Of a DNA stretch of 17,372 nucleotides, positions 1 to 17,298 are shown piece by piece; within the stretch, counting starts at the first letter, position 1, and every line of letters starts with the position of its first letter. Under the pieces are notes generated by a model. It was not told the DNA's origin. It worked only from the letters and a program-made list of their open reading frames with translations, and ran no database searches. The stretch comes from an uncultured archaeon. Lineage in GTDB: Archaea > Iainarchaeota > Iainarchaeia > Iainarchaeales > DATDZZ01. The stretch is from contig CAYJVY010000001.1 in the NCBI GenBank assembly GCA_964373795.1, forward strand, positions 171,341 through 188,712, in the 5' to 3' direction. Made by a program: the position numbers and the translations under genes.

Positions 1-81
1 AAAGAAATATTGCAAAGAAATATTGCAAAGAATGTTGCAAAGAATATTGCAAAAAAAGTTTGCAAAAGAAACAAAAGAAAC
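1..81. repeat. Tandem direct repeat array: five 12-13 bp units AAAGAA(A)T(A/G)TTGC (1-63), then 2 x AAAAGAAAC (64-81); cut by the window edge
   Basis: Read directly: units at 1-13, 14-26, 27-38, 39-50 and 51-63. Each carries the 6-bp palindrome TTGCAA (10-15, 23-28, 35-40, 47-52, 60-65; spacing 13/12/12/13). AAAAGAAAC is duplicated at 64-72 and 73-81. Unit lengths are not multiples of 3, so this is not a peptide repeat. Confidence 0.85.
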
Positions 82-109
82 AAATGTTAAAATTGTTTTA
101 AAGATTTTT

Positions 110-463
110 ATGGATGCAGATTTATCTAAAGAGATTAGAAGAAGTGTTGATACTGGAAAAGTATTATTTGGAACTAGAAGCGTTGAAAAAATTCTTTTAA
201 AGGATTCAGCTAAACTAGTAATTTTTAGTTCAAACATTCCTTCATTTGAAAAAGAAAGATTAATGCATTTTTCAAATGTTTCTGGAACTCCTTTTCTTGA
301 CTTTGAAGGAAATGCTTTAGAACTTGGAAGGGTTTGCGGAAAACCATTTGTTGTAAGCACAATGATTGTAACAGATGTTGGAAAAAGCAAGATTTTAAGT
401 TCAATGAAAGAAAAGAAAAAAGTTGTCATAACAGCGGAAACTGGAAAGAAAAAATCTAAGTGA
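110..463 (+). CDS. rpl30e: 50S ribosomal protein L30e
   Basis: Motifs TGKVLFGTRSVEKILLKDSAKLVIFSSN and ELGRVCGKPFVVSTMIVTDVGKSKIL are typical of L30e. It sits directly upstream of nusA-rps12-rps7, as in archaeal operons. I start at ATG 110 (MDADLSKEIRR...). The tracked ORF from TTG 23 reads through the tandem repeat and would add an atypical 29-aa extension. The Lys-rich C-terminal tail is unusual. Confidence 0.85.
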   Translation: MDADLSKEIRRSVDTGKVLFGTRSVEKILLKDSAKLVIFSSNIPSFEKERLMHFSNVSGTPFLDFEGNALELGRVCGKPFVVSTMIVTDVGKSKILSSMKEKKKVVITAETGKKKSK

Positions 464-467
464 AAAT

Positions 468-884
468 ATGGATAGACTTACAAATCAAGAAATTCTTTAT
501 ATTAATGCATTGGATTCAATTGCAAAAGTAAGTGCAAAAAATTGTTTCATTGACGGAGATGACATTGTTTTTTTAGTAAAAGAAGAAGATGTTGGAGCAG
601 CAATTGGAAGAAATGGCCAAACAATTAAAAAAGTTCGAAACCAGTTGAAAAAAAATATTGAAATAATTCCTTTAACCTCTGATGCAACATCTTTTATTAA
701 AAAAAGTTTTATTAAAGTAAAAATTGAAGACATTCAAGAAGTAATAGTAAAGGAAAAAAAATACTTGAATGTAAAAGTTGATTCAGAGAACAGGTCACAG
801 ATTTTTCGGAACATGAAAAAGTTTAAAAGAGTTAAAGAAATACTTAAAAAAATCTATGGAGTAGAAAATATTAAAATAATTTGA
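468..884 (+). CDS. nusA: Archaeal NusA-like KH-domain transcription termination/antitermination protein
   Basis: 138 aa, the size of archaeal KH-only NusA. It has a GxxG KH motif ([15 protein letters not shown]) and the conserved position between rpl30e and rps12. Confidence 0.8.
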
Positions 885-891
885 TGATTTT

Positions 892-2844
892 ATGGCTACA
901 GGAGAATTTGCTGCAACCCAGCTTGAAAAAAAGAGAAAAAAGTGGAGATGGAAAGAAAAAGTATTCAAGAGACGAATGAAGGGCTGGAACATTAAATTTG
1001 ATTTACTTGAAGGATCTCCTCAAGGAAGAGGAATTGTAATAGAAAAAAGAGGAGTTGAAGCTAGACAGCCAAATTCCGGAATACGTAAATGTGTTTCACC
1101 AGATACAAAAGTAACTTTATTTGATGGATGTTATACCTCGATGAAAGATTTAAAAGGGGTTTGGGATCAAGCAACAGTTTCTTCCATGAGTTTGAATACT
1201 GGTTTTGTTGAACCATCAAAATTAGTTGATCATTTTTCTCTAGAAGAAAACGAAATTAAAAAATCTTATAAAATTAAAACAATGGAAACTGGAAGAGAAT
1301 TAATTGCTTCAAGTGACCATCCAATGTTTACTTTAAGAGGAAAAATTGATGTTAAAGACCTAAAAATTGGAGACAAAGTAATTGTATTTCCTTCAAATCC
1401 AATTGAATTAAAATTAGAAAACAAAACTGTTTTAACTGAAAAAGATTTAAGAAAAGTTTTTTTTAAAAATTCCCCTACTAAAAAAATTATTGAAGAGTTA
1501 AAAAGCAAGGAATTGCTTTCTTTAAAATTAAATAATTTGAAAACATCAAAACTTGCAAGACTTGTAGGACACTTGTTTGGCAATGGTTGTTTAAGTTATG
1601 GAAAAGCCGGAACTATATTTTCAGGAAAAATTGTGATATCTGGGAAGCAAGAAGAAATAAAAGAAGTTGAAAAAGATTTACAAGATTTAGGGTTTAAAGT
1701 TTCTCCTTTGCAAAAAATGTATAGAGAACGCATAATTGAAACATCTAATGGAAAAAGAAAAATTAAAGGAACAAGTTATAGTAAAAGTGTTTCATCTATT
1801 TCTTTATTTTATTTGTTTAAAGCTTTAGGAGTTCCAGTTGGAGACAAGGCTTCAACAGAGTACACAGTTCCTAAATGGATTAAAAAAGCTCCTTTATGGG
1901 TTAAAGAAGAGTTTTTGGCAGCTTATTTTGGAAGTGAGTTAGAAAAACCAAGATTAAAAAATAAAACTTTCCAAAACCTTGCATTAAATGTAAATAAAAC
2001 AGAAGACAAAGTTGGATCTGGAATTAAATTTTTAAATGATATAAAAATACTTTTGAAAAAATTTGGCGTTAAAGCTTCTGAACCTATTAAGAAATTTTGT
2101 TGTATTAGAAAAGATGGGACAAAAACCTATAGAACACAACTTTTCATTAAATCAAATCATACTAATTTATTGAATTTATTTGGAAAAATAGGTTACAAAT
2201 ATTCTCCTGAAAGAGCAATTCTAGCTAGACATGCATTTCAGTATTTAACAATTAGAAAACAAAAATTTGGTGAATATAAAAAAGCATTTGAAGAATTTAA
2301 GAAATTAAGAAGAGAAGGATTATCAATTTCAAAGATTGAAAAAGCTTTACATGTAAAAGGTTTTACGTTTATTAAAAAAGGTTTAATTAATTATTGGGTT
2401 TCAAGAGGAGTTAAAAATATTGATAAATTAGGCATAACTGTTGAAACAGAGTCCTTTAATGATTGGAGAAAAAATGCTTCTAAAAATCTTAAGGATGGTT
2501 TAGTTTGGGAAACAATTAATGAAATAAAAGAAGAACCAGTAAAGGAGTTAATGGATATAACTACTGAAAGCTCAAACCATAATTTTTTTGCTAATGGTTT
2601 TTTAACTGGGAACTGTGTTAGAGTTCAATTAATTAAAAACGGAAAACAATTAACTGCTTTAGCTCCATACGACGGAGCAATTAAATTCATTGACGAACAC
2701 GACGAAGTATTAGTTGAAGGTTTAGGAGGCGCGCAAGGTGGGCCAAAAGGAGATTTATGGGGCGTGAAATACAGAGTAACTCACGTAAACGGAATTGCTT
2801 TAGAAATGCTTAGAACAGGTAAAAAAGAAAAGAGTAAGAGGTAA
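892..2844 (+). CDS. rps12: 30S ribosomal protein S12 (uS12) precursor containing a 508-aa intein
   Basis: The N-extein ends ...[28 protein letters not shown]. The C-extein is [39 protein letters not shown]...[28 protein letters not shown]. Joined, they give a contiguous 142-aa archaeal/eukaryotic-type uS12. Confidence 0.92.
1090..2613 (+). mobile_element. Intein (Hint domain plus LAGLIDADG homing-endonuclease domain) inserted in rps12
   Basis: Starts with Cys codon TGT 1090-1092 ([13 protein letters not shown], block A). Block B is [11 protein letters not shown] (His codon 1318-1320). LAGLIDADG-like motif 1 is [14 protein letters not shown] (1552-1593) and motif 2 is [10 protein letters not shown] (1912-1941). 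Blocks F/G are [23 protein letters not shown], ending with Asn codon 2611-2613, followed by +1 Cys (TGT 2614-2616). Confidence 0.9.
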
Positions 2845-2858
2845 AAGAGGAATATTTA

Positions 2859-3476
2859 ATGACTGAAAAACAAGAAACAAAGGTTTTTGGAAAATGGACT
2901 TCAAGTGATGTAAAAATTAATGACATTAGTTTAGTTCATCATATTAGATTGGATTCCAAAAAAATTCCTCACACTTTTGGAAAGGTTACTAGGAAAAGAT
3001 TTGGAAAAGAAAACCTTTCATTAATTGAAAGATTAATAAACAAAGTAATGCGTTCAGGGCAAGGTAAAAGAAAGTTGAGCGGAAAATACATTCGTGGAAG
3101 AGGGGCTTGTGGAAAAAAACTTCAAGCAATGAGAATAGTTGAAAATGCGTTTGACAAAATTGAAAAACAAGCAAAGCAAAATCCTTTACAAGTATTAGTT
3201 CAAGCAATTGAAAACTCTGCTCCAAGAGAAGACGTTACAAGAATTCAAAGAGGAGGAATTGCTTATACTCAAGCAGTAGATATTTCTCCAATGAAAAGAG
3301 TTGATGAATCAATTAAAAACATTGCTTTAGCTGCTTTCTCTCAATCATTTAATAATAAAACAGATGCATCTGAAGCACTAGCAAAAGAAATTTTACTTGC
3401 CTCAAAAGAAGACGCAAATTCTTTTTCAGTTAAAAGAAGAAACGAAATTGAAAGAATTGCTGCAAGTTCAAGGTAA
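2859..3476 (+). CDS. rps7: 30S ribosomal protein S7 (uS7)
   Basis: Carries the motif ENSAPREDVTRIQRGGIAYTQAVDISPMKRVDESIKNIALAA, characteristic of archaeal uS7. An AAGAGG Shine-Dalgarno-like motif at 2845-2850 lies 8 nt upstream of the ATG. Conserved position after rps12. Confidence 0.92.
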   Translation: MTEKQETKVFGKWTSSDVKINDISLVHHIRLDSKKIPHTFGKVTRKRFGKENLSLIERLINKVMRSGQGKRKLSGKYIRGRGACGKKLQAMRIVENAFDKIEKQAKQNPLQVLVQAIENSAPREDVTRIQRGGIAYTQAVDISPMKRVDESIKNIALAAFSQSFNNKTDASEALAKEILLASKEDANSFSVKRRNEIERIAASSR

Positions 3477-3513
3477 TCTTGGTTTATGCTTTATTCCGCG
3501 TAGTCTTTCCATG

Positions 3514-3535
3514 AAAAGATTTATTAACATCTTTT
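3514..3535 (+). promoter_or_regulatory. 7-bp inverted repeat AAAAGAT/ATCTTTT bracketing a TATA-like TTATTAAC
   Basis: AAAAGAT at 3514-3520, TTATTAAC at 3521-3528, ATCTTTT at 3529-3535 (exact reverse complement). It lies between the rps7 stop and the toxin-like gene. It could be an operator over a TATA box or a post-rps7 hairpin. Confidence 0.3.
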
Positions 3536-3563
3536 ATTAATATTGTTTTGTAGTGACTTTGTA

Positions 3564-3848
3564 ATGGAAATTTTTTGGACAAGCCATGCACAACAGAGAT
3601 TTATTGAAAGAGCATTAATTTATGGTTTTTCAAAAGCAGATATTGATTACCTTGCTTTAAAACAATTGGTGAGAATTAATAAAGGTTTTGATGAAAAATA
3701 TAAGACAAAAAAATTTGAAACAATTGGTTTGGCTGGAAAAGTTTTCCTTACAATTCAAAAAGCAGAAGACTCTAAAAAAATAATAATTATTACTTTGTGG
3801 GAGTCAAATAAGAAAGAGGTTGAATTATGGCTATCAAAACAAAAATGA
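3564..3848 (+). CDS. Small DUF4258-like protein (putative toxin of a type II TA-like pair)
   Basis: The N-terminal FWTSHAQQRFIERAL (HAxxRxxxR) and the C-terminal beta-strand KKIIIITLWES match the pattern I associate with the DUF4258 family. Its stop TGA (3846-3848) overlaps the downstream gene. I start at ATG 3564; the tracked ORF begins at TTG 3543. Confidence 0.55.
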   Translation: MEIFWTSHAQQRFIERALIYGFSKADIDYLALKQLVRINKGFDEKYKTKKFETIGLAGKVFLTIQKAEDSKKIIIITLWESNKKEVELWLSKQK

Positions 3849-4165
3849 AGTGTCCTGTTTGTGGAGGAGAAGCTATTCTATCAAAACAGAATTTGAAACT
3901 TTTCAGGGGGGCAATATCTTTAAAAGATAACTATGTGTATGTTTGCAAAAACTGTAATGAAAAATTTGCAACAGGAGAAATGACTGGAAAAGCATTGAAT
4001 CAAGCAAAGCAGTATTTCAAGTTTAATAGAAAATTAATTTCTACTGGCGGGAGTATTGCAATAACTCTTCCATCGGATTTAAGTGACTATTACAAACTAA
4101 AAAAAGGCGAACAAGTCCAAATAATCCCTCAATCAAAAAAAGAAATGAAAATAGTTATTTTGTGA
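3827..4165 (+). CDS. YgiT/MqsA-type zinc-ribbon protein fused to an AbrB/SpoVT-like domain (putative antitoxin)
   Basis: MKCPVCGGEAILSKQNLKLFRG...YVYVCKNCNEKFATGEM is the CxxC...CxxC YgiT-type zinc finger pattern. The C-terminal GGSIAITLPSDLSDYYKLKKGEQVQIIP looks like an AbrB/SpoVT swapped-hairpin motif. GAGGT at 3816-3820 precedes ATG 3827. The alternative ATG 3845 forms an ATGA overlap with the upstream stop. Confidence 0.6.
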   Translation: MAIKTKMKCPVCGGEAILSKQNLKLFRGAISLKDNYVYVCKNCNEKFATGEMTGKALNQAKQYFKFNRKLISTGGSIAITLPSDLSDYYKLKKGEQVQIIPQSKKEMKIVIL

Positions 4166-4226
4166 ATGACTTAAACTTTTCCAAGGCATTCTTTTAAAAT
4201 CTTTTGCAATCTGATTTCATTATTTA

Positions 4227-4263
4227 AGAGTTTAATTAACACGATTAACTCTATTTTTTTTTT
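4227..4263 (+). terminator. Weak hairpin (AGAGTT...AACTCT) followed by a T10 run
   Basis: AGAGTT at 4227-4232 pairs with AACTCT at 4247-4252 (14-nt loop). Ten consecutive T follow at 4254-4263. Oligo-T tracts act as archaeal intrinsic terminators. It sits after the TA-like pair and 10-20 nt before the aEF-2 start. Confidence 0.4.
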
Positions 4264-4273
4264 AAATTCATAG

Positions 4274-6478
4274 GTGAAATATTTGGGTAAAAAGGAAGAA
4301 GTAGCGGCATTAGCGGAAAAATTAATGTATACTCAGGAAAGAATTAGAAACATTGGAATAGTTGCACACATTGATCATGGTAAGACAACACTTACAGATA
4401 ATTTAATTGCTGCTGCTGGTTTAATGTCTCAAGAGTTAGCTGGAAAACAACTTGTAACTGATTCAGAGGATCAAGAACAAGAAAGAGGAATTACAATTAA
4501 TGCTGCAAATGTTACAATTGTTTACAATTTGCATGGCAATGATTTTTTGATTAACATTATTGATACTCCTGGACATGTTGATTTTACTGGAGAAGTTATT
4601 AGAGCAATGAGAGCAGTTGACGGAGTAATTTTAGTTGTAGATGCAGTTGAAGGAGTAATGCCTCAAACTGAAACAGTTATTAGACAGGCTTTAAGGGAAC
4701 ACGTTAAACCAGTTTTATTCATTAACAAGGTTGACAGACTTGTAAATGAATTACAAATAAGTGAAGAAGAAATGCAGAAAAGATTTGTGAAAACAATTAC
4801 TCATGTAAATGAATTAATTAGTAAAAGTGCTCCAGAACAATTTAAAGAGAAATGGCTTGTAAATCCTGGAAATGGATCAGTTGTATTTGGATCTGCTTAC
4901 AATAACTGGGCTGTTTCAGTTCCTTTCATGAATAAAAGTGGAATTAAATTCAAACAAGTTTACGAGTTTTGTAAAAAAGAAGGCGGGCAAAAAGAGTTAT
5001 CCAAGAAAAGTCCTTTGCAAGAAGTTGTATTGCAAATGGTTGCAACTCATTTACCTAATCCTTTAGAGGCTCAGAGTTATAGAATTAAAAGAATTTGGCC
5101 TGGAGACAAGGAATCAGAGGTAGGAAAAGCAATGCTTTCGGCTTCTTCTAAAGAACCTTTTGCAATGATGGTTACAGATGTTTCAGTTGACGCTCATGCA
5201 GGAGATATTGCAACTGGAAGAGTTTATTCTGGAACAGTTAAAAAAGGTTTAAAGGTTAACTTGATTGGAGGAAAAAAAGAAGTAATAGTTCAAAAGGTTT
5301 GCTTGTTCATGGTTACAGATTTTGTTGAAGTAAAAGAAATTCCTGCAGGAAATATTGCTGCCTTAATTGGATTAAAAGAAGTTTATGCAGGTGAAACTCT
5401 TTCCTCAATTCAAATGGATGAATTTGAATCATTTTTATCAAATGTAGAGCCAGTAATAACTATTTCAGTTGAACCAAAGCAAACAAAGGATTTGCCTAAA
5501 TTAATTCAAGTAATAAAGCAAGTAACAAAAGAAGATCCAAATGTTAAAGCAACAATTAATCAAGAAACAGGTGAACACTTACTTTCAGGAATGGGAGAAC
5601 TTCACTTAGAAGTAATTCAATACAGAATTGAAAAACACCATAATGTTCCATTAAATGTTTCTCCTCCAATTGTTTTATTTCATGAAACAGTTAACAAAGA
5701 GTCTCCTACAATTGAAGGAAAATCTCCAAACAAACATAATAAATTCAAAATAAATGTTTCCCCAATTCCAAAAGAAGTTTTACTTAAATTAGTTGAATCA
5801 CATTTAGATCAAAAAATTAAACCCAAAGATAAGGTAATGATTGCAAAATTTGAAGAAATGGGTTTTGAAAAAGAAGACGCTAAAAGAGTTTGGGCAGTTC
5901 ACAATAACTGTGCATTATTTGATATGACTAGAGGAATTGAAGCCTTACACGAAGTAAGAGAATTAGTAATTCAAGGATTTCAAGATGCAACAGATCAAGG
6001 GCCTTTAGCTAAAGAAAAATGTTTTGGATTAAGAGTTGACTTAGAAGATGCTTCACTACATGAAGACGCAATTCATAGAGGCCCTTCACAAGTATTGCCT
6101 GCAATTACTAGAGCAATTTATGCTGCATTTCTTTCAGCCGATCCAGTTTTATTCGAACCAAAACAAACTCTTACAATTACTGTTCCAGATGATTACATGG
6201 GAGCTGTTTCAAAAGAGCTTGGCTCTAGGAGAACTCAAATTCAAGAAATGAGGCAAGAAGGAGATTCAACTATTTTTATTGCAAAAGCTCCAGTAAAAGA
6301 ATTAATTGGGTTTTCAGCTGATATGAGAGGAGCAACTCAGGGAAGAGCTGTTTGGACAGCAGAATATGCAGGATATGAATTACTTCCAAGAGAATTACAA
6401 ACCCCTGTAATGAGAGAAATTCGTTCCAGAAAAGGAATGGATCCAGAACCAAAATCTGCAAGCTTTTTCATGGATTAA
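4274..6478 (+). CDS. fusA: Translation elongation factor 2 (aEF-2)
   Basis: G motifs AHIDHGKTT, DTPGH and NKVD. The diphthamide-site motif HEDAIHRGPSQ is intact (His codon 6074-6076). There is no ATG start. The candidates are GTG 4274 (tracked) or TTG 4283, which gives MGKKEE... and lies 5 nt after an AGGTGA Shine-Dalgarno-like motif (4272-4277). Confidence 0.95.
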   Translation: MKYLGKKEEVAALAEKLMYTQERIRNIGIVAHIDHGKTTLTDNLIAAAGLMSQELAGKQLVTDSEDQEQERGITINAANVTIVYNLHGNDFLINIIDTPGHVDFTGEVIRAMRAVDGVILVVDAVEGVMPQTETVIRQALREHVKPVLFINKVDRLVNELQISEEEMQKRFVKTITHVNELISKSAPEQFKEKWLVNPGNGSVVFGSAYNNWAVSVPFMNKSGIKFKQVYEFCKKEGGQKELSKKSPLQEVVLQMVATHLPNPLEAQSYRIKRIWPGDKESEVGKAMLSASSKEPFAMMVTDVSVDAHAGDIATGRVYSGTVKKGLKVNLIGGKKEVIVQKVCLFMVTDFVEVKEIPAGNIAALIGLKEVYAGETLSSIQMDEFESFLSNVEPVITISVEPKQTKDLPKLIQVIKQVTKEDPNVKATINQETGEHLLSGMGELHLEVIQYRIEKHHNVPLNVSPPIVLFHETVNKESPTIEGKSPNKHNKFKINVSPIPKEVLLKLVESHLDQKIKPKDKVMIAKFEEMGFEKEDAKRVWAVHNNCALFDMTRGIEALHEVRELVIQGFQDATDQGPLAKEKCFGLRVDLEDASLHEDAIHRGPSQVLPAITRAIYAAFLSADPVLFEPKQTLTITVPDDYMGAVSKELGSRRTQIQEMRQEGDSTIFIAKAPVKELIGFSADMRGATQGRAVWTAEYAGYELLPRELQTPVMREIRSRKGMDPEPKSASFFMD

Positions 6479-6508
6479 ACACATTATGGGTTTGGTCGAC
6501 ATTCAATG

Positions 6509-6550
6509 AACCAATTGCTTTCAGCAATTGGTTATCTATTTATTTTTTTT
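6509..6550 (+). terminator. Perfect 10-bp stem-loop followed by a T8 run, downstream of fusA
   Basis: AACCAATTGC (6509-6518), loop TTTCA, GCAATTGGTT (6524-6533, exact reverse complement), then a T8 run at 6543-6550. Confidence 0.6.
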
Positions 6551-6636
6551 AAATCAGTAGTTGAATTTTCTTTCATAGTTTTTATGGTTGAACCATTCAA
6601 GGATAATGCTTAAAACATTGATTTAATTTCTTTCCA

Positions 6637-7386
6637 CTATATTGCAATTATTTCTATTGGGTTTCCTCTGTCCCAAAAATCTCCAACAGGATTTAGATAT
6701 TCTTTTTCTGTTGCACTTACAAATTCTGTTTTTGGAATTCTTCTCCAAGAAATTTTAGTAAAACCTGCTTTTGTTAAATAATCAATAGTTGATTTTGTTG
6801 ATGAGCCCCATTCAACTACTCTTAGAACTCCGTTTTTCAAAAGCTTTCTTTCTCTCATTCTTCTCAGATCTTTTACAAGCTGTTCTTCTGCTTGTCTTCC
6901 AGCAGTTTTTATTAATGCTCTTTCAAAGTCACCCACAGTTGCCCCGGTATTTCTCAAGTGTTGCACTGCTTTGTCCCTTTTTTTCAGACTTCTACGAATT
7001 TCTTTTTCTATTTCTTCTACTAATTCTTCAAGGTAATTATGAATAAATATTCCTGCATTTATGAAACCAAATTTTCTTGGATCTTTAAGCCAAGCTTTAA
7101 AACCAGTGTAAGATAAATGCGCTCCAGGAATTTCTCTCCTATTTAAATCAGGGTGTTCTACTCCATGAATTCTTGCTCTTGGATTTAATTCCCCTGCATG
7201 TTTTATCCATTCTCCGCTAGCAAAACCCAAATCAACTATTCTATTTTGACTAGAAATAGCTTGTCTTACAAATGCTGCAGTATGCCTTTTAGGCAAATGC
7301 AATTTCCTTGGTTGTCTTGCATGCATTAAATAGTTGTGTTTTCCAGAATTTAAATCTCTTAGCTTTTTTCTTTTCCAAAAACACAA
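6637..7386 (-). CDS. Hypothetical protein, possibly Rossmann-fold methyltransferase-like
   Basis: IVDLGFASGEWIKH resembles SAM-binding motif I of FtsJ/RrmJ-like methyltransferases (VVDLGAAPGGW). I could not identify the K-D-K-E catalytic residues. The tracked start is TTG (7386); an ATG alternative at 7326 gives MHARQPRK.... Opposite strand to the translation operon. Confidence 0.3.
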   Translation of the reverse strand: MCFWKRKKLRDLNSGKHNYLMHARQPRKLHLPKRHTAAFVRQAISSQNRIVDLGFASGEWIKHAGELNPRARIHGVEHPDLNRREIPGAHLSYTGFKAWLKDPRKFGFINAGIFIHNYLEELVEEIEKEIRRSLKKRDKAVQHLRNTGATVGDFERALIKTAGRQAEEQLVKDLRRMRERKLLKNGVLRVVEWGSSTKSTIDYLTKAGFTKISWRRIPKTEFVSATEKEYLNPVGDFWDRGNPIEIIAI

Positions 7387-7394
7387 GTTTTAAA

Positions 7395-7421
7395 TATGTG
7401 GTTGCACATAAGTATTATGTG
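7395..7421. promoter_or_regulatory. Operator-like array TATGTG-N4-CACATA-N5-TATGTG in the divergent intergenic region upstream of the RHH/PIN pair
   Basis: TATGTG at 7395-7400, CACATA at 7405-7410 (reverse complement), TATGTG at 7416-7421. The second pair extends to 7 bp: CACATAA 7405-7411 and TTATGTG 7415-7421. A TATA-like TTTAAATA lies at 7389-7396. The antitoxin-like ATG is at 7429. Confidence 0.4.
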
Positions 7422-7428
7422 ATAATTT

Positions 7429-7671
7429 ATGCCTAATCTTACTCTTTCAATAACTGAGGAAACTAAAAAAATGATGGATAAGCACCCAGAAATTAGTTGG
7501 TCTAATGTAGTGCGTGTTATAATTGAACAGAAGCTCCGCGATTTTGAAGAAGCGGAAAGGCTTGCTTCCAAAAGCAAAATAACCGAAAAAGAATTTGAAA
7601 AGTTTATTTCAAAGGTGAATAAAGAAACAGCATTGCATGCGAAGAGGCTTCTTAATGAAAGTCACAGTTGA
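7429..7671 (+). CDS. Small antitoxin-like protein (possible ribbon-helix-helix, VapB-like)
   Basis: 80 aa. The N-terminal LSITEETKKMMDKHPEISWSNVVRVIIEQKL fits a strand-helix-helix pattern. It overlaps the downstream PIN gene by 17 nt. Confidence 0.5.
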   Translation: MPNLTLSITEETKKMMDKHPEISWSNVVRVIIEQKLRDFEEAERLASKSKITEKEFEKFISKVNKETALHAKRLLNESHS

Positions 7672-8065
7672 TGCAAATATTCTCTTTTCTGCTGTCTTGA
7701 AGCCTGGTTCTACACGAAGAATTTGGTTTAATCTTGATTTTAAATTATATGCTCCAACTTTTATTCTTACAGAATTCAAAAAGCACAGGCAATATCTATT
7801 CGAAAAAAGCAGGTTAAGTGAAGAGGAGTTTACAAATGTTGCAGGGAAAATTTTTTCCCAAACACATTTTATGGAAGATAATGAGCTGACTCCTTTTGTG
7901 CCTGCAGCAGCATCGCTTTTACAGGATCCCTTAGATTGGCTCTATCTTGCATGTGCGTTAAAAGAGGACACAGTAATCTGGAGCAATGATTTGGGATTCA
8001 AAAAACAAAATCGAATAAAGGTTTACTCAACAGAAGAAATGTTAAAAGAATTTGGTTTGCTTTAA
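7655..8065 (+). CDS. PIN-domain protein (VapC-like putative toxin ribonuclease)
   Basis: MKVTVDANILFSAVL... carries the first PIN acidic residue. Further acidic positions lie in LTEFKKH, DPLDWLYLACAL and VIWSNDLGF, the usual four-acidic PIN layout. I start at ATG 7655; the tracked ORF starts at 7637. Confidence 0.7.
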   Translation: MKVTVDANILFSAVLKPGSTRRIWFNLDFKLYAPTFILTEFKKHRQYLFEKSRLSEEEFTNVAGKIFSQTHFMEDNELTPFVPAAASLLQDPLDWLYLACALKEDTVIWSNDLGFKKQNRIKVYSTEEMLKEFGLL

Positions 8066-8085
8066 AATTTTTAAATATAATTGAT

Positions 8086-8337
8086 TTATTTTTCTTTGTA
8101 TAATCCGAAAGCAATTAATAGAATTGAAATGTATAAAACAATTGCTGAAATATCCATGATAATGTCCATTAGTCCTGGCCTGTAAAAAACATCATAAATT
8201 ACTCCGAGAAATTGGAATGGAATTAGTCTAAGAAAATCATTAATTAGTAAAACAAAGCTTAAAAACAAAGTGAACAATCTTAATAAAATGTTTAAAATTA
8301 TTCCTATTGCTCCAAGTATTACAAAAACGTTTTTCAT
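8086..8337 (-). CDS. Small hydrophobic membrane protein (about 3 predicted TM segments), function unknown
   Basis: 83 aa with hydrophobic stretches VFVILGAIGIILNILLRLFTLFLSFVLLI and ISAIVLYISILLIAFGL. I recognise no family. Confidence 0.4.
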   Translation of the reverse strand: MKNVFVILGAIGIILNILLRLFTLFLSFVLLINDFLRLIPFQFLGVIYDVFYRPGLMDIIMDISAIVLYISILLIAFGLYKEK

Positions 8338-8421
8338 AATTTAAAGATTATTGAAACGTTAAAGCTTTTAAATATATTAGTATAAATAATATATATTTTT
8401 AGAGTTTAGAGCTTGTTGAAT

Positions 8422-8455
8422 GGATTTATTTAACTTCTTAAATCCTGTTTTTTTT
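8422..8455 (+). other. Hairpin (7-bp stem, 10-nt loop) plus T8 run just upstream of the tuf ribosome-binding site
   Basis: GGATTTA at 8422-8428 pairs with TAAATCC at 8439-8445. A T8 run follows at 8448-8455. The GAGGTGA Shine-Dalgarno motif is at 8470-8476 and the tuf ATG at 8484. A very AT-rich TATA-like stretch lies at about 8368-8400. Confidence 0.35.
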
Positions 8456-8483
8456 AATGCGTAAACTGTGAGGTGAATAAAGC

Positions 8484-9755
8484 ATGGCAGAAAAGCCAAG
8501 AATTAATTTAATTTTCATTGGACATGTTGATCACGGAAAATCAACTTTAGTTGGAAGAGTTTTATACGATAGCGGAGCTCTTTCAGAACAAGAGTATAGA
8601 AAATTAAAACAAGAAGCTGATGAAAGAGGAAAAGGAACATTTGTTTTTGCTTATGTAATGGATAACTTGAAAGAAGAAAGAGAAAGAGGAGTAACAATTG
8701 ATGTTTCTTATAAAAAATTTCAAGGAAAAAATAATTTATTTACAATAATTGATGCTCCAGGACATAAAGACTTTGTTAAAAACATGATTACTGGAACAAG
8801 TCAAGCTGATGCAGCTGTATTAGTTGTTTCAGCTAAAGAAGGAATAATGCCTCAAACAAAAGAACATGCATTTTTAAGTCAAGTAATGGGAATAAAGCAA
8901 TTAACTGTTGCAATTAATAAAATGGATGAAGTTAAATACGAGCAAGCAAAATTTAATGACATTAAAGGTCAAATGGAGAAATTATTAACTGGAGTTGGAT
9001 TTAAGCCAACTCAAGTAGCTTATATTCCTTTAAGTGCATGGATTGGAGATAATGTAATAAAAAAATCTTCTAACATGGCTTGGTATACTGGGACGACTTT
9101 AGTTGAAAGACTTGATCAATTAGTTCCTCCAGAACCTCCTTTGGATAAACCTTTAAGGCTTCCAATTCAAGATGTTTACAGCATTAAAGGAGTTGGAGTT
9201 GTTCCTGTTGGAAGAGTTGAAACAGGAGTATTAAAGCCTGGAGATAAAATAATGATTGCTCCTGCAATGAAGCAAGGAGAAATTAAATCAATTGAAGCTC
9301 ATCATGAACAATTGCCTGAAGCAAAACCTGGAGACAACATTGGATTTAATGTTCGCGGTTTAGAGAAAAAAGATGTTAAAAGAGGAGACGTACTTGGACA
9401 TGTAAACGATGTTCCAACTGTTGTAAAAGAGTTTACTGCTCAAATAGTTGTATTAAATCATCCAACAGCTATTCCAGTTGGTTACACTCCTGTATTCCAT
9501 TTACATACAGCTCAAATGAGTATGACTTTAACTGAACTTCAAAAAAAATTAGATCCAAAGACTGGGCAAACAGTTGAAGAAAACCCCAAGTTTTTGAAAA
9601 CAGGGGATGCAGCAATTGTTAAAATTGTTCCAACTCAACCTCTTTGTGCAGAAGAATATAAGAAATTTCCTCAATTAGGAAGGTTTGCAATTCGTGACAT
9701 GGGTCAAACAGTTGCAGCAGGAATTATTTTGTCAATTGTTCCAAGAGACAAATAA
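8484..9755 (+). CDS. tuf: Translation elongation factor 1-alpha (aEF-1alpha/EF-Tu)
   Basis: [18 protein letters not shown] and NKMD GTPase motifs. 423 aa. A strong GAGGTGA Shine-Dalgarno motif lies 7 nt upstream. It is followed by rps10 as in archaeal operons. Confidence 0.96.
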
Positions 9756-9791
9756 TTCTTTTTTAATTTTTTTTATTTTAAGTGATTTTTA

Positions 9792-10103
9792 ATGCAAAAA
9801 GCCAGAATTAAATTAACTTCTTCAGACCATCTTTTATTGGATGAAATTTGCAAGCAAATAATTGAAGTAGCTAAAAGAACTGGAGTAAAGCATTCAGGCA
9901 TTATTGCTTTACCTACAAAGAAAATGGTTGTTCCAGTAAGAAAATCTCCTTGTGGAGGAGGAACTGAATCCTATGAAAGATGGCAGATGTGGATTCATAA
10001 AAGGCTTTTAGATATTGATGCAGACGATAGAACTCTTCGCAGAGTAATGAGAGTTGAAATTCCTGAAGAAGTTCAATTAGAAATCAAATTCAAGGAAAAA
10101 TAG
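9792..10103 (+). CDS. rps10: 30S ribosomal protein S10 (uS10)
   Basis: 103 aa. MQKARIKLTSSDHLLLDEICKQIIEVAKRTGVKHSGIIALPTKK...RLLDI is the typical uS10 pattern. Conserved position after tuf. Confidence 0.9.
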   Translation: MQKARIKLTSSDHLLLDEICKQIIEVAKRTGVKHSGIIALPTKKMVVPVRKSPCGGGTESYERWQMWIHKRLLDIDADDRTLRRVMRVEIPEEVQLEIKFKEK

Positions 10104-10109
10104 TTCTAC

Positions 10110-10146
10110 TTTTTTTATCAAACGAATTCTTTTTAACTGTTTTTAA
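10110..10146 (+). terminator. Cluster of oligo-T tracts downstream of rps10 (candidate archaeal terminator)
   Basis: A T7 run at 10110-10116 is followed by two further T5 tracts before the next gene. No convincing hairpin. Confidence 0.3.
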
Positions 10147-10163
10147 AATAAATATTAATTGCC

Positions 10164-10811
10164 ATGTTTCCTATACTTAATCTGAAAATTGAAAATCCTT
10201 TCATTAAATCTGCTTTACTTGGATTGATTGCAGGAATTCTTTTAGAATTTTTTTTAATTCTTTTCTCTGTATTAATTTCATTTGTATTTTTCAGTTTTTT
10301 TGGAGCAACTTCTTTCAATAGTTCTTCAAGTCTTTTTCTTATAGCTTTTTATATTATTAGTACTTTTTTAGTTATTTTTATTAGATTCTTTTTTGCTTTT
10401 TTAGTTGGCTTTGCTTCTTCTTATTTTTTGAAATCTTTTCCTCAATTGAAAAGAATTTTATTTGCAGGAATTGCAGGAATAACTAATGCAGTTGGAGCCT
10501 TTATTCTTGACATTATATTAATTATCATAGGTCTCTTGCTTTTTTTTATTATTTCAGCGTTTTCATCTTTTAGTAGTGGTGGAATGGGTTTACAGTTATT
10601 TTTTATGCAAGCTTTTTTATCATTATTAGGATTAGTATTTTACTTTTTTTTATTATTAATTTCTTTAATGATTGGAATTTTTTTAGGAGCATTACTTGGT
10701 TCTTTAGGAGGACTTGTTTCAATAATTGTTTTTCCTTCCCAGCTTAAAGAAACAGCTTCAAATATTTCTGTTAAAAGCTTTGTTGTAGAAAGATCTTTAA
10801 AGAAAAAGTGA
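10164..10811 (+). CDS. Polytopic membrane protein (about 5-6 TM segments), function unknown
   Basis: 215 aa, extremely rich in Phe/Leu/Ile/Ser, with repeated hydrophobic segments. It lies directly upstream of the alpha-2-macroglobulin-like gene on the same strand. Its stop TGA (10809-10811) overlaps GTG 10808 of the long ORF. Confidence 0.55.
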   Translation: MFPILNLKIENPFIKSALLGLIAGILLEFFLILFSVLISFVFFSFFGATSFNSSSSLFLIAFYIISTFLVIFIRFFFAFLVGFASSYFLKSFPQLKRILFAGIAGITNAVGAFILDIILIIIGLLLFFIISAFSSFSSGGMGLQLFFMQAFLSLLGLVFYFFLLLISLMIGIFLGALLGSLGGLVSIIVFPSQLKETASNISVKSFVVERSLKKK

Positions 10812-10842
10812 TTAGGTTTTTTCCTAATCATTCCTTAAGGTA

Positions 10843-10850
10843 TTTAAATA
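10843..10850 (+). promoter_or_regulatory. TATA-like TTTAAATA about 24 nt upstream of ATG 10871 (possible leaderless promoter for the A2M-like gene)
   Basis: TTTAAATA at 10843-10850 and ATG at 10871. The spacing fits an archaeal TATA box to a transcription start at or near the start codon. TATA-like strings are frequent in AT-rich DNA, so support is weak. Confidence 0.25.
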
Positions 10851-10870
10851 CTTTAATTCCTATTTATTGC

Positions 10871-13800
10871 ATGAAGTTTGCAAAACTAGTCATGCTTTTC
10901 TTCTTGTTTTCTTTTTTTTCTTCATTTGTTTCAGCTAATGGCATTTCTAACAGTAGTTATTTTTATTTGCAAATTGATTCCTCTGTTTTACCTGGCAAAC
11001 CAATTGATTTATCTTTTTGCGGAAATGCAAAGCTTGCAAGGCTTGAAATATTTAAATTAAATCCTTTAGATGCTCCTTTAGAAAAATATTTAGATAAATT
11101 AGAGGTTGAAGCACTTTTATTAAAATCTGAAAAAATTCGTTCACTTGATTTGCTTATTCAAGGAACAGATTATTGTAAAAAACAAGTACTTGAACCATTA
11201 ACTTCTGGATATTATTATTTCAAAGCATTTGAAGTAGGAATTCCAGTAGTTGATAGCTTGCTTGCAGAATATAATTTTGTTAATGTTTCATCCCTTGGAT
11301 TTATAGCAAAGCAATCTGATTCTAAAACTGCTTTTTATGTTTTTGACTTGGTTTCAGGAAAACCTTTACAAGGAGCTGAAGTTTTTTCTTTTAAAGAAGC
11401 ATTTAAGGATGCGAAATCAATTGGTTTAACTAACGAGCTTGGCTTGCTTGAAATTGATAAGGGAGAAGAAATTCAAAACGTTTTAGCTTCCTTGCAAGGA
11501 AATAATGCTTTTACTCGAACTTATTATTATGCTAGTTCTTATGATAAATTCCAAGTTTATTCTTTTACTGATCGCCCTATTTACAGGCCAAACCAAAAAG
11601 TTTTCTTTAAATCCATTGCATGGCAGAACTTGAATGGATTGAAATCTTTTTACTCTAATTCTTCAATTCAAGTTGAAATTTCTGATTCAAAAGGAAATTC
11701 TGTTTTCAAACAGTCTTTTACTTCAAATGAATTTGGAGCTATTTCAGGAGAATTTGTTTTAGGTGACGAGCCTTCTTTAGGAAATTATTCTTTAAATGTT
11801 TTAATTAACGATCAAGCTTTTTATTCTCAAGGATTTGAAGTTCAAGAATACCGAAAACCCGAATACAAGGTTTCCTTAACTCCTAGTAAAAAGCAATTTC
11901 TTAAAGGAGACAAAATTGAATTAAAGGTTTTAACTGAATACTTTTTTGGAAGCCCTGTTCCAAATGCAGATTTAGTTTTTGAAGTGCAAAAAGATTCTTC
12001 TTATTTTTCTCCTTGTTGGGGTTATTATAAATGTTTTTATGCTGAAGAATTTATTTTGCCTCCAAGGTATTTTAGAGGACAAACAGTTTTTTCAGGGCAA
12101 TTAAAAACTGATTTACAAGGAGAAGCAATTGTTTCCTTTGATTCAAATTCTTTAGAGGAAACAGATGTTACTTATACTGTAACAGTTAAAGCATTTGATG
12201 AATCTAGGAGAGAGGCAAGCGCTTCAACTCAAGTAAAAGTTAATTCGGCTTTATTCAAATTACTTGGTTTAACAAATAAATATTCTTATTCAGTTGGAGA
12301 AGAAATTAAGGTAAAAATTAAATCAATTGATAACGATAATTCTCCAGTTAATGCAAAAATTGATGTAAATGTTTCTAGAGGAGAATGGGATGCAAATTAC
12401 TCTGTTTACACAATTGAATCAATTAAATTTGACTCAGTTGAATCAAAAGAAGGAGTAGCAGATTATTCTTTCACTGTTTCTAAAGGAGGAAGTTATTCAA
12501 TTGAGTTAACCTCTAAAGATGAAAAAGGAAATCCAGTGAAATATAAATTAAATGTTTATGTTTATGAAGCTGGAAGATTTTTTGATAAATTTGATTCTTT
12601 AGAGATTTCATTGGATAAAGATGCGTATTCTCAAAACGATGTAGCTGTTTTAACAATTAATTCTCCTGTAAAAGAGTTTGTTGCATTAGTTTCAATTGAA
12701 GGAAAAAAATTATTTTATTTAAAGCCAACTTATTCTGAAACTAATTCAAAGCAATTGCATTTACAGTTAACTCCTGAAATGACTTTAAATGCATTTGTAA
12801 ATGTTTCAATTGTTAAAGACAATAAAATGTATTCAGCTGTAAAAAGAATTTTAATTCCCCCTGCAAATAAAAACTTGAATGTAGAAATTACTCCTCAAAA
12901 AGATTTTTTTAACCCCAGAGAAAAAGTTCAATTCAGAGTTAAATTAACTGATGAAGAAGGCAAACCAGTTAAAGGAGAGCTTTCACTTGGATTAGTTGAT
13001 GAATCAATTTATTCATTGAAAGAAGATTCAAGTGAAGACATTTTTAAATTCTTTTACTCTCCTGAAAGAAATTCTGTTTACACTAGTTCTTCTGTTCAAG
13101 CATTTTATTATCCAAGAGGAATAGAAGGTGAAATAATGACTGAATCAGGAATGCCTTTATTGGGTATTGCAGCTCCCAGAATGGAGAAAAGTGTTGACAG
13201 TGTTAGAAGAGAGTTTGCTGCTACAGAAATTAGAAATATTTTTGCTGACACTGCTTTTTGGAATTCATCAGTTAAAACAAATGCTGAAGGAGAAGCATTA
13301 GTTGAAGTTGACTTGCCTGATAATTTGACTACTTGGAGGGCAACAGTTAAAGCACTTGGAACTGAAATGCAGGTAGGACAAAACACTGATAAAATTGTTT
13401 CAAGAAAAAAAGTTATTGCTCGTTTAATTACTCCTCGCTTTTTAGTGCAAGGAGATGAATTAATTATTTCAGGAATTGTTCACAATTTCTTGCCTGAACA
13501 ACAAGAATTTTTAGTTCAATTAGATTCAAATGATTTAGAATTCCTTTCATCTAATGAAAAACTTGTTTCAATTGCTTCAAATGCTTCTCAAAGAATTGAT
13601 TTCACTGTAAAAGCTTCAAAGTGTTGTTCTGCAAAGCTTGCTTTAAAATCTCTTGGCTTAATTGAATCAGATGCAATGGAGTTAACTCTTCCAGTATTGC
13701 CTCATGGAGTAAAGCAAACAAAATATTTTTCAGGCGAACTTAAAGGAAATGAATTAGTTCAAGAAATTTTATTCCCTGAAAAAACAATTGCAGGAGCTGA

Positions 13801-15835: not shown

Positions 15836-16273
15836 ATGCCTTTCAAGTTTTTAGAGGAAGTTGCTTTAGCAGACATTGCTTTTAAAGCAACTGGAAAGGA
15901 TTTAATTGAATTACTTGAATCTAGTGCTTTAGCTGTTTTCACTGTAATGGTTGACTTGAAAACAGTTAAACCAAAAATTGAGAAAACTTTCACAGTTAAC
16001 TTACAAGCAGATAATTTTGAAAAACTTTTATTTGATTTTTTATCAGAAATTGTTTTCTTGAAGGACACTGAAGGAATGGTTTTTAAGGAAATAAAAGTTA
16101 AATGGTTTCCAGCAAAACGCGGAGCAATAGTTAAAGCAATTTTAAAAGGAGATTTAGTTAACCCTAAAACTCAAATTCTTGGACAAGACGTGAAAGCAGT
16201 TACAATGCATAATTTTAAAGTCGAGAAAACTTCTTTAAAAAAATGGAAAGCATTTGTAATCCTGGATATTTAG
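15836..16273 (+). CDS. Archease (RtcB tRNA-splicing ligase cofactor family)
   Basis: 145 aa. The N-terminal FKFLEEVALADIAFKATGKDLIELLESSALAVFTVM and the C-terminal VKAVTMHNFKVEK...WKAFVILDI match the conserved archease termini. Confidence 0.8.
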   Translation: MPFKFLEEVALADIAFKATGKDLIELLESSALAVFTVMVDLKTVKPKIEKTFTVNLQADNFEKLLFDFLSEIVFLKDTEGMVFKEIKVKWFPAKRGAIVKAILKGDLVNPKTQILGQDVKAVTMHNFKVEKTSLKKWKAFVILDI

Positions 16274-17298
16274 TTTTTTATTTTCTCTAATTTTTGTTGT
16301 CTTGCTTTTTCTCTGAAACCAATTGCTTCTCTAAACCTTGGAATTCCTTTAGGCCAAATCCTAATAACTATATTAGGAATTCCACTACTTCTTTCTTTTC
16401 CAATTGAATGTTCAACTCCTGCTTCACTCAAATAAAGTGATACGTGTTTCACTAACTCTGGATTTGTTGAAGGCAGTTCTATACACGTAGTTTTTTTTGG
16501 CCCTGAAAAGTGTATTACTCCATGTGAATCAAATAATCCTTTCAAGAAATCAATTCTGTTTTTTTGAGTTGAAAGAATTTTTACAGGAATTCTAGTTAAA
16601 TACTCTGTTTCTCTGTTTAAAATTTGAGTTAAATTTCTTGCAATAAACGCATGTGTTTCAAGTCCTTTTGTTTCAACAAATTTCACTTCTTTTCCTGCAA
16701 TATTTGCTAATCTTGTTCTAAATTCTTTTCCAAAACCTTTATCTTTTGCTGCAAGATTTAATCCCATGTTACCAACAACTTTTTTTTGTTGAGGACTTCT
16801 TCTAGTTTCTTGTCCAAACATTGCTCCAATAATATATGCATAATCTGCTTCTTTTTCTGGAGTGAACTCAATTTTTTTTCTCATTCTTTCATATGAATCT
16901 GCTCTTTTAAGTGAAACATTTTTTGGAAGCCTTTCATGAAAAAGCCATAAACGAACAGAGGTTTTCTCCACTCCAAATCGTTTTGCAATATGAGTTAAAT
17001 TAGGAGTTTGTCCTAATTCAATATATTGATTGTATGCTTCAACTACTTGTTTAAGGGTTTCAAATTCTTTTAATTGTTGTTCTAGTTTTCTACGCATTTC
17101 TTCTGGTTTTACTCCAAGCCAAGAAAATCTTTCAAGTAATCTTTCCCTTGCTTCAACTAGTGAAACTCTTTGCCCTGAAGGCAAAAAAATAATTGATTCT
17201 TTTCTATCTTTTGATGGAAGCAAGGCTTCAAGGTATGAAATTCTTTTCTTCCAAATAGTATTTCTTGTATTAGCTGGCTTTTTTCTTGCTCTAATCAT
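16270..17298 (-). CDS. Free-standing HTH + double-motif LAGLIDADG (homing-endonuclease-like) protein
   Basis: HTH-like LTHIAKRFGVEKTSVRLWL (about 16945-17001). LAGLIDADG-like motif 1 is YAYIIGAMFGQE (16807-16842) and motif 2 is DFLKGLFDSHG (16519-16551), about 97 aa apart as in single-chain enzymes. The C-terminal IRIWPKGIPRFREAIGFREKARQQKL is typical of the fold. There are no Hint/intein blocks and no flanking extein. The 3' end overlaps the archease 3' end by 4 nt (convergent). Confidence 0.65.
   Translation of the reverse strand: MIRARKKPANTRNTIWKKRISYLEALLPSKDRKESIIFLPSGQRVSLVEARERLLERFSWLGVKPEEMRRKLEQQLKEFETLKQVVEAYNQYIELGQTPNLTHIAKRFGVEKTSVRLWLFHERLPKNVSLKRADSYERMRKKIEFTPEKEADYAYIIGAMFGQETRRSPQQKKVVGNMGLNLAAKDKGFGKEFRTRLANIAGKEVKFVETKGLETHAFIARNLTQILNRETEYLTRIPVKILSTQKNRIDFLKGLFDSHGVIHFSGPKKTTCIELPSTNPELVKHVSLYLSEAGVEHSIGKERSSGIPNIVIRIWPKGIPRFREAIGFREKARQQKLEKIKN

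Follow-up and report, generated by a model that had tools for sequence, protein, structure and literature searches.

The window examined here is a stretch of 17,372 nucleotides (nt) from an uncultured archaeon (contig CAYJVY010000001.1, positions 171,341 to 188,712 of the forward strand; G+C content about 30%). It is built around a cluster of translation genes. The gene order was established from the listing of open reading frames (ORFs) and by Pfam and NCBIfam profile scans. L30e, NusA, S12 (rps12), S7 (rps7), EF-2 (fusA), EF-1alpha (tuf) and S10 follow each other in the order and orientation of the archaeal 'streptomycin' operon, as in Methanococcus vannielii. In contrast to that operon, the version in the window is broken by three insertions. 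An intein lies within S12, a two-gene toxin-antitoxin (TA)-like cassette separates S7 from EF-2 (positions 3477-4273), and an island containing a second TA-like pair separates EF-2 from EF-1alpha (6479-8483). A sequence-only reading of the window had listed these three inserts in rps12-rps7-fusA-tuf, and all of them are indeed present (Table 1). Scans of the window for RNA genes, with Rfam and for tRNAs, were negative.

The nearest EF-2 sequences, with 66-73% identity, originate from Iainarchaeota/Diapherotrites genomes and metagenomes. In the EF-2 tree the window forms a long isolated branch with about 65-69% identity to all other members. By these comparisons the host is a DPANN archaeon, Iainarchaeota-like, on an isolated branch. 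Related sequences are referred to below by L numbers.

Table 1. Features of the window and the conserved region upstream of EF-1alpha in relatives.
Feature	Position	Strand	Evidence or remark
L30e	23-463		
NusA-KH	468-884		
S12 precursor, 650 aa	892-2844	+	exteins and intein
S12 N-extein, aa 1-66, ending ...PNSGIRK	892-1089	+	NF003254/TIGR00982 matches
S12 intein, 508 aa (aa 67-574)	1090-2613	+	Pfam Intein_splicing, TIGR01445, TIGR01443
S12 C-extein	2614-2844	+	
S7 (rps7)	2859-3476	+	NF003106, 248.5 bits
Cassette upstream region with TATA-like TTTATTAA and TAGTGA motif	3500-3563	+	DNA similarity among cassette copies
Putative toxin, 94 aa, divergent DUF4258/RelE-ParE (BECR) fold	3564-3848	+	family, PHROG match, structure model
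Putative antitoxin, 112 aa, YgiT/MqsA-type zinc ribbon and uncharacterised C-terminal domain	3827-4165	+	
Cassette-to-EF-2 spacer	4166-4273	+	T10 at 4254-4263; GGTGA at 4272-4276
EF-2 (fusA)	4274-6478	+	TIGR00490, 1021 bits; public gene calls start at TTG 4283
Terminator-like 11-bp hairpin (6509-6533) and T-rich tail with T8	6509-6550	+	-13.7 kcal/mol, z = -3.86
Class I S-adenosylmethionine (SAM)-methyltransferase-fold protein, 229 aa, probably from ATG 7326	6637-7326	-	ORF open to 7386
VapB-like ribbon-helix-helix (RHH) antitoxin, 80 aa	7429-7671	+	Pfam RHH_12 (precomputed)
PIN_2 putative toxin, 142 aa	7637-8065	+	PF10130, 77.7 bits against a cutoff of 22.4
Hydrophobic membrane ORF, 83 aa, without family match	8086-8337	-	gene call also in independent assembly
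EF-1alpha upstream region with TATA-like TTTTAAATA (8366-8374) and GAGGTGA Shine-Dalgarno-like motif	8338-8483	+	
EF-1alpha (tuf)	8484-9755	+	TIGR00483, 675.6 bits
S10	9792-10103		
EF-1alpha promoter/leader in relatives	L001 13929-14061; L003 7872-8004; L004 12213-12345; L005 12944-13076; L006 12206-12338; L013 935-1067; L016 4413-4545; L019 12197-12326		

Misassembly at the insert boundaries, which the sequence-only reading had named as a way in which it could be wrong, is very unlikely. Logan assemblies of the sequencing runs ERR3478686, ERR4904390 and ERR4904391 match the window at 99.9-100% over positions 3-3544, 1099-4941, 2556-4422, 3531-4523 and 7195-8701. In Logan assemblies of three different runs, exact copies of the S12 precursor, of the first cassette and of the PIN gene are on record. 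Most boundaries are thus reproduced independently: the contigs cross both intein junctions, both ends of the S7/EF-2 insert and the right end of the EF-2/EF-1alpha insert, which excludes that these junctions are assembly artefacts. A chimera joined at the insert boundaries could draw on one ERR3478686 contig that stops at position 3544, near the left edge of the cassette, and on the stretch 6479-7194, i.e. the left end of the EF-2/EF-1alpha insert, over which independent contig coverage is missing. However, contigs from the two other runs traverse S7, cassette and EF-2 unbroken at 99.9-100% identity, and a further contig covers the N-terminus of the methyltransferase-fold protein, VapB, PIN, the 83-aa ORF and EF-1alpha. 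A chimera is therefore hardly credible. In ERR3478686, one of three runs, the assembly (contigs L022 and L027) breaks exactly at the left cassette edge (window 3531-3544), perhaps owing to low coverage or because part of the population lacks the cassette.

An intein at a recurrent site in S12

The intein with a homing endonuclease domain which had been noted inside rps12 was confirmed by profiles and by two LAGLIDADG motifs. It is inserted in frame, with Cys67 and Asn574 as its first and last residues and Cys575 in the +1 position. The N- and C-terminal intein profiles, TIGR01445 and TIGR01443, both scored above their cutoffs. Block B reads S140-S-D-H143. LAGLIDADG motif 1 is located at aa 222-233 (nt 1555-1590), with LVGHLFGNG at aa 224-232. 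Motif 2 occupies aa 341-351 (nt 1912-1944), with LAAYFGSEL at aa 342-350. When the exteins were compared with the intein-less S12 proteins of about 17 Iainarchaeota-like relatives, the alignment was contiguous (aa 1-142) across the junction. We infer that the precursor is spliced, given the essential role of S12 and an intact ORF.

How common is an intein in S12? Among 5.8 billion proteins we searched for clusters of about 650 aa that match both Ribosom_S12_S23 and Intein_splicing. About 75 such clusters were found across Archaea, with carriers in Diapherotrites, Micrarchaeota, Aenigmarchaeota, Woesearchaeota, Nanoarchaeota, Thaumarchaeota and Bathyarchaeota as well as in Caldivirga and Vulcanisaeta. 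When 69 S12 proteins with an intein were aligned, the insertion site was identical throughout, and Cys1, the Asp-His of block B, the C-terminal Asn and the +1 Cys were each present in 69 of 69. The penultimate residue in block G of the window's intein is Gly573 and not His. Since Gly, Ser or Lys occupies this position in the whole S12-intein family, the lack of His characterises the family and does not point to decay; inteins without a penultimate His exist. The endonuclease is a different matter. The acidic residue of motif 2, Glu349, is shared with 67 of the 69 proteins; at the catalytic position of motif 1, where 65 of 69 carry Asp, the window has Asn231, a substitution found in only 3 of 69. 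This suggests that the endonuclease has entered the decaying phase of its homing cycle, and it may be inactive or a nickase.

The intein closely resembles the 'intein-containing 30S ribosomal protein S12' annotated by NCBI in Caldivirga maquilingensis, Vulcanisaeta souniana and Caldivirga sp. The insertion site (RK/C...N/CVRV), the length of about 508 aa, the splicing residues and the two LAGLIDADG motifs are all shared, and full-length identity is 40-61%. It differs from these proteins in the Asn that replaces the Asp of motif 1 and in its host, a DPANN archaeon of the Iainarchaeota type. Closer by, L023 and L029 carry the S12 intein with 51-55% intein identity to the window, and carriers and non-carriers are interleaved on the EF-2 tree. 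By all these comparisons the S12 intein is a known allele which behaves like other inteins, although no paper describing it was found in the open-access literature. Mechanistically, a LAGLIDADG-type intein would occupy the sole recurrent intein site of uS12, a few residues past the PNS(A/G) motif; it would spread among archaea by homing and would have to be spliced out to yield a functional S12.

Inteins are also present in other genes of these genomes. The source contig of the window encodes an intein in RpoB (P0078) with 36% identity to the S12 intein, and L023 likewise has an RpoB intein (344-3325). EF-2 is interrupted near its P-loop in L009 by a mini-intein of about 540 bp (10109-10645), in L010 by an intein of about 1.6 kb (8417-10000), and in L029, where a 1241-aa EF-2 (7872-11597) contains a LAGLIDADG intein. 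The LAGLIDADG ORF at 16270-17298 of the window was considered as an RtcB intein from which the S12 intein might have been seeded, and was dismissed: it is free-standing and unrelated (BLASTP E = 0.08).

A mobile two-gene cassette between S7 and EF-2

The cassette consists of two overlapping plus-strand ORFs. According to public gene calls the first gene starts at ATG 3564, not at TTG 3543. Its 94-aa product belongs to a family of 11 clusters, of which two named members are labelled Iainarchaeum and 'archaeon'; the latter was named DUF4258 by NCBI. PF14076 (DUF4258) is matched by 5 of the 11 family members with a best E-value of 9e-4. In addition, phrog_4399, a 'ribonuclease toxin', gave a weak full-length match to the 94-aa protein (E = 0.004). 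The AlphaFold model (predicted local distance difference test, pLDDT, 68) has a RelE-like beta-alpha-alpha-beta4-alpha topology, and its best PDB matches by Foldseek are the toxins RelE, ParE, YoeB and HigB (E = 6e-3 to 0.1, template modelling score about 0.45-0.5). The topology of the model would fit the RelE/ParE toxins of PF14076; the window's toxin alone, in contrast, has no match to PF14076, and its own family is tiny.

The 112-aa product of the second gene starts with a CxxC...CxxC zinc ribbon of the type found in MqsA/YgiT antitoxins (TIGR03831 YgiT_finger, 21.0 bits against a cutoff of 20.2), and its best PDB sequence match is the N-domain of MqsA, at E = 0.41. In the C-terminal 47 residues (aa 66-112) no helix-turn-helix, AbrB or other domain was detected by Pfam and PDB profile searches. 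In this respect the protein departs from MqsA, as its C-terminus is not a helix-turn-helix domain. By eye the C-terminus resembles a strand-rich domain of the SpoVT/AbrB type, a reading which neither Pfam nor PDB profiles supported. The toxin-first order and the overlapping antitoxin gene are those of DUF4258/MqsA modules, for which MqsRA of Escherichia coli is the studied analogue. In a recent survey DUF4258 has been listed as a RelE/ParE-superfamily toxin that is found fused to MqsA (PMC11980606). It is reasonable to assign the cassette as TA-like, as had been proposed, with a putative DUF4258/RelE-fold toxin and a putative MqsA-type antitoxin.

The same overlapping pair, with 56-74% identity, was found at three other, mutually different loci. 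In L032 it is near Hsp70/DnaJ, in L033-35 between ribulose-phosphate epimerase and a pyrophosphatase, and in L036 after an unrelated 222-aa gene. The overlap of 22 nt between the toxin and antitoxin genes is conserved in L032 and L033-35. DNA similarity to the copies in L032, L033 and L036 sets in about 60 nt before the ATG of the toxin gene and extends to the stop codon of the antitoxin gene, not further. Among the Iainarchaeota-like relatives, on the other hand, the gap between S7 and EF-2 does not exceed 133 nt in any and usually is 12-32 nt; about 17 relatives have an empty site and only the window is filled. Since the gap is short in every relative, the cassette is a genuine lineage-specific insertion of a mobile TA-like module. 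To judge from its changing genomic neighbours, the small DUF4258/MqsA-like module has demonstrably moved between loci within Iainarchaeota. We propose that a self-contained module of about 670 bp, comprising its own promoter region and two genes, landed in the S7/EF-2 spacer, which normally measures 12-64 nt. No relatives of the toxin family or of the PIN gene of the second insert were found in viral contigs; PADLOC reported no defence families, and PHROGs only the weak toxin match.

Two further features of the cassette copies deserve mention. Beside the TATA-like box upstream of the cassette a motif, TTTTTCACTACAA, is conserved in L036 (672-745), L032 (about 4860-4938) and L033 (about 9930-10000). 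Its CACTAC is duplicated in L036, and in the window the motif has diverged. This motif may serve the antitoxin as an operator. In L033 the cassette is flanked by a tRNA gene (9762-9929) and by a 47-nt partial copy of its 3' end (10617-10663). This tRNA gene has an 87-nt intron; it was missed by ARAGORN and recognised by Rfam with 42.6 bits. The duplication around an insert of about 690 bp looks like an att-type duplication.

A variable island between EF-2 and EF-1alpha

The second non-intein insert starts with a minus-strand gene for a methyltransferase-fold protein, which is divergent from the VapB-like gene. The protein carries the motif DLGFGxGxW...HGVE...NAG, and its model (pLDDT 85) matches methyltransferases with a Foldseek E-value of about 1e-6. 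The family is rare, with 7 detectable relatives among 1.84 billion representative proteins. A long helical insertion is predicted at aa 94-161. For the following pair, too, the proposed TA-like assignment is reasonable. As in VapBC modules the RHH-type gene is located upstream of the toxin gene and overlaps it, here by 35 nt, and the acidic residues D12, E46, D98/D100 and D118, as read from the sequence, are in common with VapBC PIN toxins. An exact copy of TTTTAAATA is present at 7388-7396, upstream of the VapB-like gene. The pair differs from typical VapBC modules in that the PIN_2 (PF10130) subfamily is little studied, that the match to the VapB profile NF050799 (25.7 bits, E = 1.3e-5) is below the cutoff of 60, and that the genes are set between two minus-strand ORFs in a variable island.

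The junction between EF-2 and EF-1alpha is empty in L004, L006, L007/L017, L013, L014/L021, L016 and L019, with a gap of 103-189 nt, and filled in L001, L003, L005, L008, L009, L018 and L020, where the gap amounts to 826-2532 nt. With the window included, eight filled lineages stand against at least five empty ones, and both states are interleaved on the EF-2 tree. The cargo comprises NeuB, SPFH with RHH and PIN, VapB with PIN, lipoproteins and assorted ORFans; no similarity was detected between the cargoes of different lineages or to that of the window. PIN-type pairs are present at three of the eight filled junctions (window, L003, L009). Unrelated cargo combined with empty sites, as looked for in an integration site, was thus found at this junction, not between S7 and EF-2. 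Side by side with this variability, an invariant TTTTTAAAG box and a leader, GGTTTCCAATTT...AATTGGTGGCGAATT, directly precede EF-1alpha in eight relatives with filled as well as with empty junctions (Table 1). About 60 nt of the leader are conserved and include a CCAATT/AATTGG hairpin. It may be a regulatory 5' untranslated region. The conserved promoter and leader make EF-1alpha a separate transcription unit in the clade of these eight relatives, and therefore the EF-2/EF-1alpha junction is a natural transcription-unit boundary. The region upstream of EF-1alpha in the window is different, with a weak hairpin and eight T (8421-8455, T8 at 8448-8455); by analogy to the eight relatives, 8338-8483 probably is the EF-1alpha promoter region. 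Cargo would land between the EF-2 stop and the EF-1alpha promoter, and the junction would be a variable island across Iainarchaeota.

In L001 a 19-nt repeat (TTTTGGAATAA..GATTGT, two mismatches) surrounds the NeuB-containing insert at 12186-12204 and 13969-13987. It was equalled by 1 of 200 shuffles and may be a target duplication.

Transcription units and the origin of the stacking

The sequence-only reading had held that these genes are normally tightly adjacent in archaea. This holds for S12, S7 and EF-2. It does not hold for EF-2 and EF-1alpha, which in Iainarchaeota are linked by a variable junction with a spacer of at least 103-190 nt, variable cargo and, in the eight relatives, a separate EF-1alpha promoter and leader; here the arrangement deviates from the archaeal 'streptomycin' operon. 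Two T-runs had further been taken to suggest that the inserts re-partition the operon into separate transcription units. Both runs are exact, ten T at 4254-4263 and eight T at 6543-6550, and the T10 is the longest T-run of the window. Of the 45 runs of six or more T on the plus strand of the window, 9 are in its intergenic part, which makes up about 5% of the window. A T6 and a T8 lie between EF-1alpha and S10, where there is no insert, and runs of T6-T8 between the S7 stop and the EF-2 start are present in L001, L004, L016, L019 and L020, in all of which this site is empty. As T-runs occur at empty junctions, too, they constitute no evidence for an insert-driven re-partitioning. By its predicted folding, the hairpin with T-tail downstream of EF-2 is the only strong terminator-like structure, and this boundary predates the insert.

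Upstream, the cassette is co-oriented with the operon and no T-run is present between S7 and the cassette, so EF-2 is likely to be reached by read-through and/or from the cassette promoter, which on the features of the DNA is the most likely mode of its transcription. In the window no consensus TATA was detected between the cassette and EF-2; thus the T10 would have to be leaky if EF-2 is made. A sigma-70 promoter scan of the window gave no enrichment; its consensus is bacterial and irrelevant to an archaeal host.

The boundary after S10 was examined as well. Between S10 and archease the window has a polytopic membrane protein and a 1662-aa bacterial-type alpha-2-macroglobulin with MG2, A2M, TED and bMG10 domains (10164-15796). 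In L005, L006, L008, L013 and L019 the distance from S10 to archease is about 50-900 bp. By this comparison the 5.7 kb are a non-selfish lineage-specific insertion, and an alpha-2-macroglobulin is unusual for a DPANN archaeon. The insertion indicates that transcription-unit boundaries are generally fluid here. Farther downstream a free-standing 342-aa LAGLIDADG_3 protein is encoded on the minus strand (16270-17298), convergent with the archease gene. With it the window may contain a fourth selfish element.

Taken together, the three inserts are probably unrelated mobile or variable elements which each came by an ordinary route of its own. Their co-occurrence would then be that of three common events and not a property of the operon. 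Their independence, which the sequence-only reading had asserted, is borne out by relatives that have one insert and lack another. L023 and L029 contain the S12 intein and lack the S7/EF-2 cassette, L001, L003, L005, L008, L009, L018 and L020 have cargo between EF-2 and EF-1alpha and no S12 intein, and the cassette resides at other loci in L032, L033-35 and L036. The synteny comparison that had been suggested uncovered empty sites for all three inserts.

Some data weigh against this interpretation or limit it. Scans of genomes and metagenomes with EF-2 gave no relative above about 73% identity. The window's own toxin has no Pfam match, PF14076 included, and its structure model is of moderate confidence only. 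Neither of the two non-intein inserts in the window is flanked by a target-site duplication, an att site or an integrase, and only short repeats at chance level were seen there; the insertion mechanisms of both are inferred. The sole hints at recombination are the 19-nt repeat in L001 and, at a different locus, the tRNA duplication in L033. Finally, three PIN-type pairs at eight filled junctions exceed a rough genome-wide rate, one PIN pair in about 60 kb of annotated flanks, and could signal more than neutral permissiveness. The EF-2/EF-1alpha junction might be an Iainarchaeota-wide insertion hot spot within the core translation genes which prefers PIN-type and other addiction modules and, separately, EF-2 might have come partly under a TA promoter via the cassette. 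We consider this combination unlikely. TA modules are among the most mobile genes, hence PIN pairs are to be expected in any variable island.

The interpretation offered originally was that the operon may be a selected safe harbour, in which selfish elements persist since their deletion puts essential neighbours at risk, and that the T-runs of the inserts split it and would change the ratio of EF-2 and EF-1alpha to S12 and S7. Three selfish-type elements within 7.6 kb, the recurrence of PIN-type pairs between EF-2 and EF-1alpha in independent lineages and the stacking of elements in relatives, i.e. an EF-2 mini-intein with VapBC in L009 and an S12 intein with an EF-2 intein in L029, are compatible with this, as is the exceptional length of the T10. 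Nevertheless, it is unlikely. The S7/EF-2 insertion is unique to the window genome, the intein sits at its usual conserved site, and the EF-2/EF-1alpha junction accepts any cargo, much of it non-selfish (NeuB, SPFH, lipoproteins). A safe harbour is also unsupported because the neighbouring S10/archease boundary is just as fluid and carries a non-selfish insertion. Against re-partitioning stand the T-runs at junctions without inserts and an EF-1alpha promoter and leader that are conserved in the eight relatives with or without cargo; moreover, with no consensus TATA ahead of EF-2, the T10 could not terminate fully if EF-2 is to be made.

Another proposal would be a regulatory capture, in which the presumably autoregulated cassette promoter contributes to or controls the synthesis of EF-2 and couples its supply to the module. 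In its favour, the cassette is positioned directly upstream of EF-2 in the same orientation and brings along a conserved promoter region of its own. The DNA between S7 and the cassette lacks a T-run, and a clear TATA is missing between the cassette and EF-2. However, the argument is purely positional, the T10 intervenes between cassette and EF-2, and the other copies of the cassette are not beside translation genes; we regard a capture as improbable. Still less can be said for the possibility that the intervening genes are ancestral to the lineage and were lost from the sampled relatives. The window is on a long isolated branch (about 65-69% EF-2 identity) and its immediate ancestors are unsampled, which speaks for such losses. 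Against them, no two filled lineages share their cargo between EF-2 and EF-1alpha, lineages of both states are mixed in the tree, the cassette was found at other loci and never between S7 and EF-2, and parsimony favours gains. An ancestral origin is very improbable, and the conserved ancestral arrangement which would have spoken against the sequence-only reading was not seen in the relatives compared.

With three unrelated elements as the preferred explanation, the window is an extreme of a common pattern of element stacking rather than an exception. All components are of known kinds and the new points are comparative only. The current understanding of inteins, TA modules and operon organisation is unchanged, and neither the safe-harbour nor the re-partitioning hypothesis was borne out by the comparisons. 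What may be useful is the widespread occurrence of the uS12 intein allele in Archaea, the mobility of the DUF4258/MqsA-like module, and the existence of a variable EF-2/EF-1alpha island beside an EF-1alpha leader conserved in eight relatives. Selfish and accessory DNA thus builds up in a very small DPANN genome, even within its most conserved gene cluster.

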